From NCBI RefSeq assembly GCF_045037415.1, contig NZ_CP173438.1: DNA of 64,000 bases. The stretch is one strand, 5' to 3'. The DNA is from Escherichia coli (GTDB lineage Bacteria; Pseudomonadota; Gammaproteobacteria; Enterobacterales; Enterobacteriaceae). The position numbers were made by a program, and so were the translations under genes. The notes beneath the pieces were generated by a model, which saw nothing but the letters and a program-made list of their open reading frames with translations, was not told the origin of the DNA and ran no database searches. Of the stretch, positions 7,947-29,608 are shown one piece after another; the stretch's first letter is position 1; each line of letters begins with the position of its first letter.

Positions 7947-9308
7947 TTACTTCTCCAGTTGGCGTAATATCTTATTAACTTTATCAAAAGTTTCCTGATA
8001 TTCCGCTTCTTCCTGGCTATCGGCAACAATTCCACCGCCCGCAGAGCAGTAAATTTGTCCGTTAATGGTAGTCAGCGTGCGGATAGTAATGCTGGTGTCC
8101 ATGTTGCCGCAAAAGCTCAAATAGCCAATGCTGCCGCACCAGGCATTGCGTCGCTGCGGTTCCAGTTCGTCGATAATTTCCATAGCCCGTACTTTCGGAG
8201 CCCCGGTTATTGAGCCACCAGGAAAAGCCGCGCGCAGCAGATCGCTGGCGTGTAACTGTTCTGGTAGTTGCGCCGTTATGGTGCTGACCAGATGATGCAC
8301 GGCAGGGAAGGGTTCCACCACGAACAGCTCTGGTACTTTTACCGAACCTGCTACGGCAACACGACCGATATCATTACGCATTAAATCGACAATCATCAGA
8401 TTTTCGGCACGATCTTTCGTTGAGTTCGCCAGTTTTTCTGCTTGTTTGCTATCTTCCAGAAGATCGGGCAGGCGTGGTAGCGTGCCTTTAATCGGGCGGG
8501 TCTGGATTTCACCATTATCACAAAGAATAAACCGCTCTGGTGAAAGGCTTAAAATAGCAGCCTGTTCAAGACGTAAAAAAGCGCTAAACGGCGCGCGGTT
8601 GGCCTGATTAAGCTGAAGGAATGCCTGCCATTCATCGCCAGAATAGGTCGCATGAAAACGCTGGGCGAGATTCACCTGATAGCAATCACCGCTGTGCAGA
8701 TATTCCTGTACCTGGCGAAATTTTTCGCCGTACTGTTCGCGGGTCATATTGGATTGCCAGTCGGAAGTGAGTGTGAAATCTTCCTGCGGGGAGAATTGCT
8801 GGCTTTCCAGCCAGGCCCGACGGGCATTGACATCATTATGACTCAGCAAAGAAACTGTTTGACGCTGGTGGTCGACAACCAGCGCCCAGTCGTAGATACC
8901 CACTGCCATATCCGGCAGAACGATATCTTGTTCCGCAATTTCTGGCAGTGACTCAAAACGGCGGCCCAGATCGTAGCCAAACAACCCCAGCGCGCCGCCC
9001 TGAAATGGCAAATCTTCGTTATGCGCTGGGCGAATGTCTGCACGATCCAGCACCTGCTGGAGCACCTGTAGCGGGTCATCAGTGGTCGTTGTGCGTTTTT
9101 CGCTTTCACTAACAACGGTTTCTTTACCGAAAGTGGTTAAAGTGCAAATTGGCTCGGCGACCACAATATCAAAGCGGCTATACGGATGATCGGCATAGCC
9201 GGAGTGTAAAAGCATCGCCCACGGCAGGTGGCTTAAGTGGGAGAAATAAAATTCAGCGGCGTCCTGACGCCAGGGTAAAGTAATCACAGCGGGAGATAAC
9301 GTCTTCAT
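7947..9308 (-). CDS. pabB: aminodeoxychorismate synthase component 1
   Basis: 453-aa ORF MKTLSPAVITLPWRQDAAEFYFSHLSHLPWAMLLHSGYADHPYSRFDIVV... recognised as PabB. Confidence 0.96.
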   Translation of the reverse strand: MKTLSPAVITLPWRQDAAEFYFSHLSHLPWAMLLHSGYADHPYSRFDIVVAEPICTLTTFGKETVVSESEKRTTTTDDPLQVLQQVLDRADIRPAHNEDLPFQGGALGLFGYDLGRRFESLPEIAEQDIVLPDMAVGIYDWALVVDHQRQTVSLLSHNDVNARRAWLESQQFSPQEDFTLTSDWQSNMTREQYGEKFRQVQEYLHSGDCYQVNLAQRFHATYSGDEWQAFLQLNQANRAPFSAFLRLEQAAILSLSPERFILCDNGEIQTRPIKGTLPRLPDLLEDSKQAEKLANSTKDRAENLMIVDLMRNDIGRVAVAGSVKVPELFVVEPFPAVHHLVSTITAQLPEQLHASDLLRAAFPGGSITGAPKVRAMEIIDELEPQRRNAWCGSIGYLSFCGNMDTSITIRTLTTINGQIYCSAGGGIVADSQEEAEYQETFDKVNKILRQLEK

Positions 9309-9381
9309 CAGTCCTGACTCTACTGGCTATGTGCCGGGTAGCATGAAATAATTAGCGCCAACAATTTAGCAGGAGTTAACA

Positions 9382-9561
9382 ATGTTTGCAGGTTTACCTT
9401 CACTCACCCATGAACAGCAGCAAAAAGCCGTCGAGCGGATCCAGGAACTGATGGCACAAGGGATGAGCAGCGGCCAGGCAATCGCGCTGGTGGCAGAAGA
9501 GCTGCGTGCCAACCATTCCGGCGAGCGAATCGTGGCGCGTTTTGAGGATGAAGACGAGTAA
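9382..9561 (+). CDS. yoaH: small protein YoaH (UPF0181), 59 aa
   Basis: Not in ORF track (under 60 aa). ATG at 9382 preceded by AGGAG (9371-9375); translates [59 protein letters not shown], stop 9559-9561. Confidence 0.85.
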
Positions 9562-9619
9562 CACACTAATCCGTATCGCTTTCGTTATAGAAGCCGATGA
9601 TTATTTGATTGTGAGAAAA

Positions 9620-9652
9620 AGGACGCTTTTTATATGTGATTAAAAGCGTCCT
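9620..9652. terminator. inverted repeat between convergent yoaH and yoaC (AGGACGCTTTT / AAAAGCGTCCT, 11-nt loop); possible bidirectional terminator
   Basis: Perfect 11-bp inverted repeat in the 120-bp convergent gap; no clean U-tract, so functional assignment is tentative. Confidence 0.3.
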
Positions 9653-9680
9653 GACCCATTTATGCTGATGTGAATTTAAC

Positions 9681-9980
9681 TCAAACCAGTGCTTTTAGTT
9701 CTTCCTGCATATATGTTGAAAAGTATTCAGGATTTTTAATCACAGAGCGTTCACCAGACTCCATTTTTTTTGCCCATCCAACCATTTTTTCCGTGAAACC
9801 AGGGTTCCAGCCTTCCTGGTCAGCTCGCGCCGTAATATCAGCGGCACTCGCGGGTACTCCCAGTTCTTTTAAATATTTAAAGATTCCCTTCGCCGTACTT
9901 TCATTCATCGAACTTGGTGTTGGCGCTGATACATCCATGGCACCAATGAAATCCAGGGCTTTATCTATTACAGCAGGCAT
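9681..9980 (-). CDS. yoaC: DUF1889 family protein
   Basis: ORF 9681-10004; K-12-length product (99 aa) begins MPAVIDKALDFIGAMDVSAPTPSSMNESTAKGIFKYLKELG... Confidence 0.9.
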   Translation of the reverse strand: MPAVIDKALDFIGAMDVSAPTPSSMNESTAKGIFKYLKELGVPASAADITARADQEGWNPGFTEKMVGWAKKMESGERSVIKNPEYFSTYMQEELKALV

Positions 9981-10401
9981 ATTCTTATCCTTAAAATTAA
10001 CCATGTTATCGATAAGGCTATATATGACCTTAATTTGTATCTAATATCAAAGGGATTATAACGATATGGCACGAGTTAACCTATTGACATTCAGGTGTTT
10101 TAAAGGTAGCAGCTCATGGTGTGTTATCCAGTAAGATGGAGAAAATTAATGGTCAGTCCTCACGCTATAACCAGATTGTTCAGGTAAGAAAGAAAACCAG
10201 AGATGCTAATCGAAGGGCGAACATAACGGCATGATTATGTTTATTTATATAGTTAGTTTTATAGATAAAATTGAAATTATAAAAATAAATAATGAATTAG
10301 CAGGAGCATCAACTGTAATATCTTAATCTCTGGTCGATTTTTGCAAAACCGACCAGTATTGTCGATAAATTATCGTCTGACTTATTTTGCTTCGATAAAG
10401 C

Positions 10402-10746
10402 TTACACCGCAGCCACAATCTTAATTTCAACTTTATACTTCGGGTTCATCAAACCTGCTTGTACCGTGCAGCGCACCGGCGCATGACCCGCGACAACCCA
10501 GGCATCCCACGCTTTATTCATCGCCGCGAAGTCGTTTTTATCGGCCAGGAAAATGGTGGCATCCAGAATGCTCGATTTATTGCTGCCCTGTTTTTCCAGC
10601 ACGGCGTCAATCTGCGCCAGCGTGTTGGCGGTTTGCTCAAAGGCATCGGCGTCGAGGTTTTCCGGTACACCAGTGTAGTAGAGCGTGTTGTTGTGGATTA
10701 CCACATCAGACCAGCGGGCTTCGGCATCGATACGAACGATAGTCAT
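10402..10746 (-). CDS. yoaB: RidA/YjgF-family protein
   Basis: ORF 10402-10794; K-12-length product (114 aa) begins MTIVRIDAEARWSDVVIHNNTLYYTGVPENLDADAFEQ...; GAGGA upstream. Confidence 0.9.
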   Translation of the reverse strand: MTIVRIDAEARWSDVVIHNNTLYYTGVPENLDADAFEQTANTLAQIDAVLEKQGSNKSSILDATIFLADKNDFAAMNKAWDAWVVAGHAPVRCTVQAGLMNPKYKVEIKIVAAV

Positions 10747-10877
10747 CATTTTGTCCTCATTATACTTCCATTTTCGTGCTGCAAAGACTGCCACAATGTG
10801 AGGTCGCCGTCACCACTTCAACTGGCGAAAGCGCCCTCATCCTGACATAATCCCTGTTCAAATCAACAGGGGGTAGT

Positions 10878-12788
10878 GTGACGGACGATTTTGCACAAGA
10901 CGGTCAGCTGGCGAAAGCGATACCAGGCTTTAAGCCGCGAGAACCACAGCGACAGATGGCGGTAGCCGTCACCCAGGCGATAGAAAAAGGCCAGCCGCTG
11001 GTGGTGGAAGCCGGAACCGGTACGGGCAAAACCTACGCTTACCTGGCCCCTGCGCTGCGGGCGAAAAAGAAAGTCATAATCTCGACCGGCTCAAAAGCGT
11101 TGCAGGATCAGCTCTACAGCCGCGATTTGCCAACGGTCTCAAAGGCATTGAAATACACGGGCAATGTGGCGCTGCTGAAAGGGCGCTCAAACTACCTCTG
11201 CCTCGAACGTCTCGAACAGCAGGCTTTGGCGGGGGGCGATCTGCCGGTACAAATCTTAAGCGATGTGATCCTGCTGCGCTCCTGGTCTAATCAAACAATC
11301 GATGGTGATATCAGCACCTGCGTCAGCGTGGCGGAAGATTCACAGGCGTGGCCGCTGGTCACCAGCACCAACGATAACTGCCTCGGCAGCGACTGCCCGA
11401 TGTATAAAGATTGCTTTGTGGTCAAAGCACGCAAAAAAGCGATGGACGCCGATGTGGTGGTGGTAAACCATCATCTCTTTCTGGCGGATATGGTGGTGAA
11501 AGAGAGCGGTTTTGGCGAACTGATCCCGGAGGCGGACGTCATGATCTTCGACGAAGCCCACCAGCTGCCCGACATTGCCAGCCAGTATTTTGGTCAGTCA
11601 CTCTCCAGTCGACAACTGCTCGACCTGGCAAAAGACATCACCATCGCCTACCGCACCGAATTAAAAGACACCCAGCAGTTACAAAAGTGCGCGGATCGTC
11701 TTGCCCAGAGTGCGCAGGATTTTCGCCTGCAACTCGGTGAGCCTGGTTATCGCGGTAACCTGCGTGAGCTGTTAGCTAATCCGCAAATTCAGCGGGCATT
11801 TTTACTGCTCGATGACACTCTGGAACTTTGTTATGACGTGGCGAAACTGTCGCTGGGGCGTTCCGCCTTGCTGGATGCGGCATTTGAGCGCGCCACGTTA
11901 TATCGCACACGGCTGAAACGGCTAAAAGAGATCAATCAGCCGGGCTACAGCTACTGGTACGAATGCACTTCGCGCCATTTTACTCTGGCTCTCACGCCGC
12001 TCAGCGTGGCGGATAAATTCAAAGAGTTAATGGCGCAAAAAACCGGTAGCTGGATCTTTACCTCAGCAACGCTGTCGGTGAACGACGATCTGCATCATTT
12101 CACCTCGCGGCTTGGCATTGAACAGGCAGAGTCATTGCTGTTACCCAGCCCCTTTGATTACAGCCGCCAGGCGTTACTCTGTGTGCCGCGCAACCTGCCG
12201 CAAACCAATCAACCGGGTTCCGCACGGCAACTGGCGGCAATGCTGCGACCGATCATCGAAGCTAACAACGGTCGTTGTTTTATGCTTTGTACCTCGCACG
12301 CCATGATGCGCGATCTGGCCGAGCAGTTCCGCGCTACCATGACGCTTCCCGTTTTGTTGCAGGGGGAAACCAGCAAAGGGCAACTGTTGCAGCAATTTGT
12401 CAGCGCCGGTAACGCGCTTCTTGTGGCAACCAGCAGTTTCTGGGAAGGGGTGGACGTGCGTGGCGATACATTGTCATTGGTGATTATCGACAAATTGCCG
12501 TTTACCTCGCCGGATGATCCACTATTAAAAGCACGCATGGAAGATTGCCGTTTGCGCGGTGGTGATCCGTTCGATGAAGTACAACTGCCGGATGCGGTCA
12601 TTACTCTCAAGCAGGGGGTAGGGCGATTGATTCGCGACGCCGACGATCGCGGCGTGCTGGTGATTTGCGACAATCGGCTGGTGATGCGCCCTTACGGCGC
12701 GACGTTTCTCGCCAGTCTGCCGCCAGCGCCGCGCACCCGTGACATTGCCCGTGCGGTTCGTTTCCTTGCGATACCATCCTCCAGGTAA
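10878..12788 (+). CDS. yoaA: DinG-family ATP-dependent DNA helicase
   Basis: 636-aa ORF, GTG start; Walker A GTGTGKT, DEAH box IFDEAHQL, Fe-S cysteine cluster CLGSDCPMYKDCF visible. Confidence 0.95.
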   Translation: MTDDFAQDGQLAKAIPGFKPREPQRQMAVAVTQAIEKGQPLVVEAGTGTGKTYAYLAPALRAKKKVIISTGSKALQDQLYSRDLPTVSKALKYTGNVALLKGRSNYLCLERLEQQALAGGDLPVQILSDVILLRSWSNQTIDGDISTCVSVAEDSQAWPLVTSTNDNCLGSDCPMYKDCFVVKARKKAMDADVVVVNHHLFLADMVVKESGFGELIPEADVMIFDEAHQLPDIASQYFGQSLSSRQLLDLAKDITIAYRTELKDTQQLQKCADRLAQSAQDFRLQLGEPGYRGNLRELLANPQIQRAFLLLDDTLELCYDVAKLSLGRSALLDAAFERATLYRTRLKRLKEINQPGYSYWYECTSRHFTLALTPLSVADKFKELMAQKTGSWIFTSATLSVNDDLHHFTSRLGIEQAESLLLPSPFDYSRQALLCVPRNLPQTNQPGSARQLAAMLRPIIEANNGRCFMLCTSHAMMRDLAEQFRATMTLPVLLQGETSKGQLLQQFVSAGNALLVATSSFWEGVDVRGDTLSLVIIDKLPFTSPDDPLLKARMEDCRLRGGDPFDEVQLPDAVITLKQGVGRLIRDADDRGVLVICDNRLVMRPYGATFLASLPPAPRTRDIARAVRFLAIPSSR

Positions 12789-26690: not shown

Positions 26691-28166
26691 TTAAATATGA
26701 TGAATAATCACTTTGTTGCCCCCCTCGCTTTTCGCTTCGCGTAAGGCTTTATCTGCTTCCGTCATGACAAGCGAGATATTATGCGTGTCACCCGTTGAAA
26801 AAACCGTGCCAATACTGATGGTCATTTGTTCAGGAACATCATATCTGTTACTAAAGCCGGTCAGGAGTTCGACATTTTTACGCATACGTTCCGCAATGAT
26901 TTTTGCCTGGGCACTATTGAGTTCGGTAAATAGCAAGCCAAACACCTCACCCTCCAGTCGCGCTAAAATATCATCGGGGCGGATGCTTTGCTGGATAATA
27001 TCGACAATTGATACCAGCACTTTATCACCCACACGATGTCCCCATTGGGCATTGATGCGTTTGAACTGATTAATATCAACCAGCATGACACAAAAGTCCT
27101 TAACAACAGGTCGCGACAATAATGACTCTACGCTGTTGAAAAAGTAGCGCCGATTATAAATATTGGTCAGCACATCATGAACTGCCAGTTTGCTGGAGAG
27201 TTGCAGTTCCTGAAAAATGTTATAAATCAGAAAAGACACAACAAACAGTTTACTGGAAACTTCAATCCCGCGACTGATATACCAGATGGTGTAATTATAC
27301 TCATCCAGAGTCAGTAGAAGTAAGTTGCAGCATAGCGATGCCAGACATAATAATGCTATTAACGGCCATAGTTCGCTGGCTAATCGTGTACGCATGATAA
27401 TAAAGAACAGTAAAAATGCCCACAAACAAACCAATATTTTTGTATAGTTGATTCCCCAGGTCGCAGTATGGTTGTCCGGGCAGTAATCGACGACATACAA
27501 AGAATAGTCAGCGTTATAACTGCTCAGATTGTGTGCCAGAAGGGGAAAAACTAAAAAAGGAATCAGCGCCAGCAACAGAATGCCAGTTTTTTTCTTATTG
27601 TTGTCAAGGATGTTGTCTTTCCCATAACAAAAGAGCGCCAGCGAGGTTAAACAAATGAAACTGAGTTGGCGGAAAATATAGAAAATAGAAACATCATTCG
27701 ACTTTGTCTGGATCAGTGTACTGCCGTTGATTGGTTTATGGATAATTACAATGGTTTCAACTAAATAGATAAGGCCACTTAAAAATGCAAGGCTTAAAAT
27801 GAGTGTTGGTAAAATTTGTTTGTTAGTGAAATACTTCATTAACATGAAAAGAAAAATGACGGCGTTAAGGAAAAACAAAGCCACAACAACCATCAGGTAA
27901 TTCATCTGTGGGATGAGTTTTACATTCGTGTTTTCGTTATATAAGGTAGTAATGCAAAATAAAATTAACGTCAGCAATAAGCTGAAAATAAAAAAGCCTT
28001 GAGCTTTTAATTTTTGTGTACCCATAGAAGCCATAAAAAGGAGAGCAATGTGAGTGCTGGATTTTATTGATGGCAGAGATATATAGTTTTGACCAAGATC
28101 AATTTTCGTTAACGATAAAAAATAATTAAAGAATAACCCCAGGGAAATACGTGTTGACCGAATCAT
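26691..28166 (-). CDS. dgcI: membrane GGDEF-domain protein with degenerate active-site motif (EGEVF)
   Basis: 491-aa ORF recognised as YeaI; N-terminal multi-TM region, C-terminal GGDEF fold with ...ILARLEGEVFGLLF...; coding sequence is conspicuously AT-rich. Confidence 0.9.
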   Translation of the reverse strand: MIRSTRISLGLFFNYFLSLTKIDLGQNYISLPSIKSSTHIALLFMASMGTQKLKAQGFFIFSLLLTLILFCITTLYNENTNVKLIPQMNYLMVVVALFFLNAVIFLFMLMKYFTNKQILPTLILSLAFLSGLIYLVETIVIIHKPINGSTLIQTKSNDVSIFYIFRQLSFICLTSLALFCYGKDNILDNNKKKTGILLLALIPFLVFPLLAHNLSSYNADYSLYVVDYCPDNHTATWGINYTKILVCLWAFLLFFIIMRTRLASELWPLIALLCLASLCCNLLLLTLDEYNYTIWYISRGIEVSSKLFVVSFLIYNIFQELQLSSKLAVHDVLTNIYNRRYFFNSVESLLSRPVVKDFCVMLVDINQFKRINAQWGHRVGDKVLVSIVDIIQQSIRPDDILARLEGEVFGLLFTELNSAQAKIIAERMRKNVELLTGFSNRYDVPEQMTISIGTVFSTGDTHNISLVMTEADKALREAKSEGGNKVIIHHI

Positions 28167-28312
28167 TTTTCCGAATGATTGTTTTCTGGAACTAAATTGT
28201 GTAAAGGTTATGCTGTCATATTTAAAGCGATTGTAAGCTAATGTATGTAATAAAAGAGATAATTTACAGTGAGCTAAAAATCAGCCAGGCGATAATGACC
28301 CGGCTGACAGTT

Positions 28313-29608
<1,296 letters not shown>

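Follow-up and report, generated by a model that had tools for sequence, protein, structure and literature searches.

The window analysed here, the whole 64,000-nt stretch of an Escherichia coli chromosome segment (NZ_CP173438.1, GCF_045037415.1), carries the small genes yoaC and yoaB on either side of a long AT-rich interval. The locus is arranged as follows in window coordinates, with yoaC and yoaB placed by the RefSeq annotation of matching E. coli genomes and K-12.

7947-9308, minus strand: pabB
9382-9561, plus strand: yoaH
9562-10401: AT-rich islet of 840 bp and 37% GC, comprising the yoaH-yoaC spacer, yoaC, and the yoaB-yoaC spacer
9681-9980, minus strand: yoaC
9981-10401: yoaB-yoaC spacer, 421 bp
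10402-10746, minus strand: yoaB
10878-12788, plus strand: yoaA

The gene layout of K-12 is the same as that of the window, and RefSeq annotates no feature in the yoaB-yoaC gap of K-12 or the matching E. coli genomes. A preliminary description of this DNA had identified the two genes as yoaB and yoaC and placed them in the same direction, in agreement with RefSeq. It had also described the gap as a strongly AT-rich spacer of 421 bp that is unusually long, and both properties held up when measured. The spacer has 32.3% GC versus 49.8% for the whole window, which places it in the lowest 0.3% among 421-bp windows, and it ranks as the third longest of 34 co-directional gaps (median 71.5 bp) in the 50-kb K-12 neighbourhood. 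The A/T-rich string quoted in that description was located at 10240-10301, within a core (10236-10330) having 18.9% GC. We found the spacer in 5423 of 5426 complete E. coli genomes, with 5352 of these carrying it intact. The window's only other place as AT-rich as the spacer is a patch at ~27531-28420, where GC reaches a minimum of 31.6% in 421-bp windows.

The length and composition of the spacer can be attributed to the insertion of the 840-bp islet between the yoaH and yoaB stop codons. GC content is 52.5% in yoaB and 56% in yoaH, versus 37% in the islet. The YoaH-encoding contigs of Salmonella, Citrobacter, and Klebsiella have no such insert, and their called yoaH and yoaB genes face each other across a gap of just 0-7 bp. 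Alignment of the junction showed that the Escherichia-specific DNA falls exactly between the two stop codons. A search for YoaC relatives in one genome of each species yielded 19 loci, among which yoaC lies between yoaB and yoaH at the Escherichia loci only. Its contexts in Buttiauxella, Citrobacter, and Lelliottia are unrelated. The 421-bp spacer is the upstream arm of a foreign-looking islet that brought yoaC into Escherichia, and the islet appears to have been inserted in the Escherichia lineage with yoaC already aboard. Since insertion explains the long gap, no hidden gene is needed to account for it.

A mobile-element origin of the islet was considered and rejected. Neither the YoaC protein nor the spacer DNA showed similarity to phages, a repeat analysis detected no terminal repeats at the islet flanks, and the islet carries one 99-codon gene with no mobility genes or repeats seen. 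In a plasmid collection, the only matches to the spacer were in four E. coli records (0.42-4.9 Mb), each at this same locus. YoaC matched these four E. coli records and three Klebsiella records (0.69-5.4 Mb) bearing a DUF1889 gene of 68-70% identity. All seven records are predicted to be non-mobilizable and most are chromosome-sized.

To describe conservation within the spacer, we aligned seven Escherichia spacers and measured identity by segment relative to the other Escherichia species.

9681-9980: yoaC coding sequence, identity 84-96%
9981-10110: yoaC-proximal ~130 bp of the spacer, identity 77-90%
10111-10401: distal ~290 bp of the spacer, identity 1-67%
10236-10330: extreme AT core, 44-63% identity between species and 1% in Escherichia sp. 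MOD1-EC7003 (L003)

The distal spacer is fast-evolving and rich in indels, with a stem-loop at 10330-10356 standing out as preserved. Escherichia sp. MOD1-EC7003, whose yoaB and yoaC are 98% and 96% identical to those of the window, has a spacer of ~271 bp (L003:2727-3000) from which the AT core is deleted. E. coli R32_14_1F (hit H90) matches the yoaC-proximal 121 nt of the query alone. These two genomes show the distal spacer to be dispensable or replaceable.

The yoaB side of the spacer contains the following features related to the 3' end of the yoaB transcript.

10330-10356, minus strand: stem-loop in the yoaB 3' UTR, CUGGUCGGUUUU-GCA-AAAAUCGACCAG, 46 nt past the yoaB stop codon
10326, minus strand: dominant yoaB mRNA 3' end (K-12 1893787(+)), 4 nt past the stem
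10111-10311, minus strand: untranslated C-rich, G-poor (rut-like) tract
10094, minus strand: bicyclomycin-sensitive (Rho) termination region (K-12 1894019(+))

As RNA, the inverted repeat forms a stem-loop at the 3' end of yoaB. It had been described as CTGGTCG-N13-CGACCAG at 10331-10357; the repeat is real and lies one base lower, at 10330-10356. The repeat extends to 12-nt arms that are 92% complementary around a 3-nt centre, and the predicted fold of the sense-strand RNA has a 12-bp stem capped by a 3-nt loop. Two pairs of the stem have compensatory changes (U-A to C-G and G-C to A-U), as judged from 8 related Escherichia sequences only. Across these 8 sequences, 87% of stem cells were paired, versus 20-50% when the partner was slid. 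Published Term-seq data (Adams et al. 2021, PMC7815308, supplementary file 1) place the yoaB 3' end at K-12 1893787(+) under each of the three growth conditions.

No U-tract follows the stem in E. coli, where the sequence is AGAGAUUAAG, and a terminator scan of 9500-10900 returned 0 sites. Further downstream, the sense-strand C/G ratio is 2.5-3.7 at 10311-10202 and remains >1.2 down to 10052, with a plus-strand GC skew of +0.29 at the rut-like tract. Bicyclomycin sensitivity was reported at K-12 1894019(+) with a Rho score of 3.15 (P = 2.4e-6), a coarse signal obtained with 800-nt windows (Adams et al. 2021, PMC7815308, supplementary file 2). The best Rho position (10094) is 2 nt from the mapped yoaC start (10096). 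Because the two nearly coincide, the bicyclomycin effect may represent induction of the yoaC promoter rather than yoaB read-through.

A hairpin without a U-tract and with a C-rich, G-poor tract and a bicyclomycin-sensitive region downstream is the arrangement expected of Rho-terminated transcripts whose ends are trimmed back to a hairpin. Given that the yoaB hairpin has no U-tract, and that a C-rich tract and a bicyclomycin-sensitive region lie downstream, Rho termination further down followed by trimming is the most likely origin of the 3' end. The yoaB 3' end resembles Rho-dependent terminators having a protective stem-loop in its hairpin without a U-tract, its untranslated C>G tract downstream, and its bicyclomycin-sensitive region ~230 nt further on. 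It differs from them in that the Rho signal, which is of low resolution, falls together with the yoaC start, and in that trimming is something we infer. With canonical intrinsic terminators it shares a stem-loop followed within a few nucleotides by an RNA 3' end, whereas the yoaB hairpin has no U-tract and the upper part of its stem is A-U rich.

On the yoaC side, the spacer contains the promoter and leader of yoaC, and a weak start site on the opposite strand lies near its yoaB end.

10096, minus strand: yoaC transcription start (K-12 1894017), giving a 5' UTR of 116 nt
10108-10103, minus strand: candidate -10 element TACCTT, weak and read from the sequence
10130-10125, minus strand: candidate -35 element TGGATA, likewise weak and separated from the -10 element by a 16-bp spacer
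10060-10055, minus strand: perfect TATAAT, invariant in all 7 Escherichia spacers, with a poor -35
9981-10110, minus strand: conserved block of yoaC promoter and 5' UTR, with Shine-Dalgarno AAGGA at 9992-9988
10369, plus strand: weak transcription start, antisense to yoaB

The mapped yoaC start derives from a single study, in which 21 reads supported position 1892041 of NC_000913.2 (Kim et al. 2012, PMC3415461, supplement). The TATAAT predicts a start near 10048 (K-12 ~1894065), differing from the mapped start at 10096, and no start site for it was found among the mapped starts. In Citrobacter, Lelliottia, and Buttiauxella, the sequence aligned with the TATAAT is a -10-like element with CTTTGA after it, and GGTTAATTTTAAGGATAAGA ahead of the yoaC ATG is also conserved across genera. 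A promoter scan returned 2 promoter-like sites versus 3.3 expected, and its failure to pick up either the mapped promoter or the conserved TATAAT is due to the weak -35 elements of both. The stability of the yoaC 5' UTR fold was ordinary relative to shuffles (z = -0.35). There is no entry for yoaB or yoaC in the SMRT-Cappable-seq supplement. The weak plus-strand start corresponds to 1891768(-) of NC_000913.2, which was supported by 12 reads and which Kim et al. 2012 (PMC3415461) attributed to yoaA, with a leader of 509 nt.

The start codon of yoaC is itself ambiguous. RefSeq places it at the ATG at 9980 (99 aa), and starting from a further ATG in the same frame, at 10004, would make the protein 107 aa long. 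The ATG of an older K-12 annotation (119 aa) is ATA in the window (10040). We favour the start at 9980 because neither Citrobacter FP75 nor Lelliottia V86 has the upstream ATG. A four-codon frame (ATG TCA ATA GGT TAA, 10076-10090, minus strand) begins 6 nt after the mapped yoaC start and is open in all seven Escherichia spacers despite internal substitutions.

The preliminary description had taken the interval for promoter or regulatory DNA. This was borne out by the mapped yoaC start inside it and by two LysR-type regulators, YhaJ and YeiE, bound there in vivo. The features related to YhaJ and to the nucleoid protein H-NS are as follows.

10322-10340: centre of the YhaJ ChIP-seq peak in two UPEC replicates (10340 and 10322), with a replicate-1 peak window of 10121-10550
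10259-10274, plus strand: T-N11-A motif assigned to YhaJ by the ChIP-seq authors, TTATAGATAAAATTGA, 65-66 bp off the peak centre
10362-10371, plus strand: exact H-NS high-affinity motif tCGATAAATT, within the palindrome CGATAAATTATCG (10363-10375)

YhaJ peaks at yoaC were reported in both EHEC and UPEC, and yoaC was named among the known YhaJ-regulated genes (Connolly et al. 2019, PMC6765310). In CFT073 the peak centres are at 2045445 and 2045463 (PMC6765310 SI Table S4), with yoaB ending at 2045383. The rows of Table S3 considered here give EHEC peak shape scores of 10.4 and 21.1 and likewise place the EHEC peak 65 bp from the same assigned motif (PMC6765310). Among these rows, only yhhW, ybiJ, and yqjF have a higher replicate-1 peak shape score than yoaC. 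Among the regulation papers cited by PMC6765310 that were consulted, yoaC goes unmentioned in the main text. For YeiE, Gao et al. 2018 (PMC6237786) report ChIP-exo binding upstream of yoaC, and use yoaC to illustrate the upstream mode of binding, which is more often linked to activation.

The YhaJ peak centre falls on the hairpin/palindrome region, ~230-245 bp upstream of the mapped yoaC start. LysR-type regulators usually occupy -35 to -80. The peak is far from this position relative to the yoaC start, which counts against a model of yoaC regulation by YhaJ. Alternatively, the binding could act on the weak plus-strand start (10369) or represent non-functional occupancy of AT-rich DNA. We built a YhaJ weight matrix from 11 published sites (PMC6765310) and found no YhaJ box above chance in the spacer. 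The best score in the spacer was 6.6, obtained by TTATAGATAAAATTGA, a level expected by chance ~1.5 times per 500 bp of the window. The yoaC locus is similar to the YhaJ regulon promoters (yqjF, ybiJ, yhaK, and yhhW) in having a YhaJ ChIP-seq peak in two pathotypes and in being listed as regulated. However, those promoters have a clear TCA-N7-TGA box that lies both near the promoter and close to the peak centre. The best box at yoaC scores no better than chance and is separated from the peak centre by 65 bp and from the mapped start by >160 bp. A separate sequence, TTAAAACACCTGAATG (10088-10103, minus strand), is identical at 13/16 positions to the YhaJ site listed for yhaJ's own promoter (TCAAAATTCCTGAATG). 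This sequence spans the mapped yoaC start inside the conserved block and lies outside of the ChIP-seq peak window.

The H-NS motif (Lang et al. 2007, PMC2094087) at 10362-10371 is the sole exact match in 64 kb (P ~0.005 by composition-matched shuffles), and alignment showed that it is kept at 9-10 of 10 positions in 4/5 other Escherichia species. Near-matches with up to 2 mismatches are also enriched, with 5 in the spacer versus 1.18 in composition-matched shuffles (P = 0.009). The preliminary suggestion of H-NS-bound DNA thus has its support at the level of sequence, in the AT-richness, the exact motif, and the lineage-specific insertion origin of the spacer, and H-NS may bind here. AT-rich islets silenced by H-NS are re-activated by resident regulators through counter-silencing, as with LeuO, SlyA, and Ler. 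The yoaC islet resembles such acquired islets in its low GC content (32-37% versus 50%), its lineage-restricted insertion, its exact H-NS motif with excess near-matches, its LysR-type regulators bound far upstream of the promoter, and its recurrent IS1 insertion. It differs from them in being tiny and without mobility genes or repeats, and its silencing by H-NS and counter-silencing by YhaJ or YeiE would be predictions.

Two alternative explanations concern the palindromic DNA at the yoaB end of the spacer. In one, yoaB transcription would end independently of Rho, with the inverted repeat serving as a non-canonical terminator and polymerase stopping at the hairpin. The strong Term-seq end 4 nt past a stable, covarying stem in all three conditions fits this explanation, as does the coarseness of the Rho signal, which may reflect yoaC promoter activity. 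Nonetheless, we consider it unlikely in view of the missing U-tract, the empty terminator scan, and the C-rich, G-poor tract and bicyclomycin-sensitive region downstream, which favour Rho-dependent termination. In the other, YhaJ or YeiE would use the palindrome region (10330-10375) as an operator in the DNA, instead of or besides its being an RNA element. A regulator bound there would govern yoaC at long range or act on the plus-strand promoter starting at 10369. Here the ChIP-seq centres are telling, as they fall on the palindrome rather than on the authors' motif 65 bp away, and relative to the start at 10369 the peak centre would be at about -30 to -47, where LysR-type regulators typically bind. 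We consider an operator less probable still. The compensatory substitutions preserve pairing rather than a fixed recognition sequence, the palindrome has no YhaJ-box match, ChIP-seq resolves only tens of base pairs, and the plus-strand start rests on 12 reads. The preferred reading of the inverted repeat remains a hairpin that acts as RNA.

The remaining alternatives would have the spacer encode a product. One short frame had been singled out in the preliminary description.

10066-10134, plus strand: 22-codon frame, MARVNLLTFRCFKGSSSWCVIQ, not a gene

This frame does open with the ATG at 10066, although it has 22 codons rather than the 21 first counted. The judgement that it could not be supported as a gene was sound: in all five other Escherichia species (L003-L007) its ATG is lost and in-frame stops are present. 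It also runs antisense over the yoaC -10 element and start, and the start-site data examined contain no plus-strand start upstream of it. Sense-strand frames of 14 and 11 codons exist as well and are not conserved. K-12 annotation includes other small proteins discovered by ribosome profiling, yet leaves this gap empty. Hence, a small protein encoded on either strand is the least plausible of the explanations weighed here, to the point of being negligible. A long structured yoaC leader, whether riboswitch-like or a small RNA, is only slightly less improbable and would be very surprising. It would have counterparts in nearby long co-directional gaps that hold such leaders, for instance the riboswitch in the 428-bp gap before mntP, and the proximal 130 nt of the spacer are highly conserved. 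However, an Rfam 15 scan of 9000-11500 with E up to 10 gave two chance hits only (E = 2-9), whose 15-18 bits compare to gathering scores of 65-95. Furthermore, shuffled versions of the 5' UTR fold about as stably, the distal part is poorly conserved and indel-rich, and the mapped start leaves a leader of just 116 nt. The spacer encodes no protein or structured RNA.

The yoaB-yoaC interval is well documented but is ordinary regulatory DNA of a known kind, and nothing at the spacer contradicts current understanding. We consider it likely that the spacer is a composite on an acquired islet, consisting of the yoaB 3' UTR with its hairpin, an AT-rich region bound by regulators, and the yoaC promoter with its leader. 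Under this reading, 10401-10326 would be the yoaB 3' UTR, where the conserved stem-loop fixes a stable 3' end. Transcription would terminate through Rho in the untranslated spacer, followed by exonucleolytic trimming back to the hairpin, and termination downstream of yoaB would also shield yoaC from yoaB read-through. The stretch from 10326 to ~10110 would constitute the fast-evolving and very AT-rich upstream DNA, which published data show to be occupied by YhaJ and YeiE in vivo. This upstream region is probably silenced, and YhaJ and YeiE may open it to activate yoaC. Finally, 10110-9981 would form the conserved yoaC core promoter and 5' UTR.

A more specific proposal is that YhaJ and YeiE dock on the region of the hairpin and H-NS motif, ~235 bp upstream of the yoaC start, and act from there as distant counter-silencers. 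We regard this proposal as doubtful and offer it tentatively. If true, recently acquired and fast-evolving AT-rich DNA a few hundred bp long would double as an RNA 3'-end signal for yoaB and as a switch for yoaC, and the switch would wire the acquired gene into a regulon for quinone and aromatic stress.

These results unite scattered genome-wide data on an unstudied locus, namely the 3' end, the Rho region, the start sites, and the occupancy by YhaJ and YeiE. The resulting map may help work on YoaC, a protein of unknown function; E. coli becomes more sensitive to boric acid when it is deleted (PMC11502571). It may also help users of the YhaJ regulon, which is employed in explosives biosensors, as well as the study of chromosomal mcr-1 capture mediated by IS1 and Tn6330, which has been reported at the yoaB-yoaC site.

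The spacer is a recurrent IS1 target. We observed IS1 at three islet sites in three strains, each with a 9-bp duplication, one of which (9624-9632) lies on the yoaH side of yoaC and two of which lie in the spacer.

10393-10401: 9-bp IS1 target duplication in strain AVS0790
10251-10259: independent 9-bp IS1 target duplication in strain 360D-1

A published isolate has Tn6330 (mcr-1) and IS1 between yoaB and yoaC (PMC9045152). In addition, 84 genomes (~1.5%) match the spacer in two separate places, as an interrupted spacer would. The IS1 sites all fall within the AT-rich flanks of yoaC, and the yoaC of 360D-1 is also annotated as frameshifted.

On the other side of yoaC, its spacer to yoaH holds a bidirectional terminator hairpin (window 9615-9656), with arms AGGACGCTTTTTAT / ATTAAAAGCGTCCT at 9620-9652. 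Term-seq 3' ends were reported on both strands at this hairpin, at K-12 1894457(-) with very high reads and at 1894498(+) (PMC7815308). A Rho-dependent region was also reported antisense to yoaC at K-12 1894397(-), corresponding to ~9716 on the plus strand, with a Rho score of 3.16 (PMC7815308). The position of this region suggests that Rho stops yoaH read-through into the antisense strand of yoaC.
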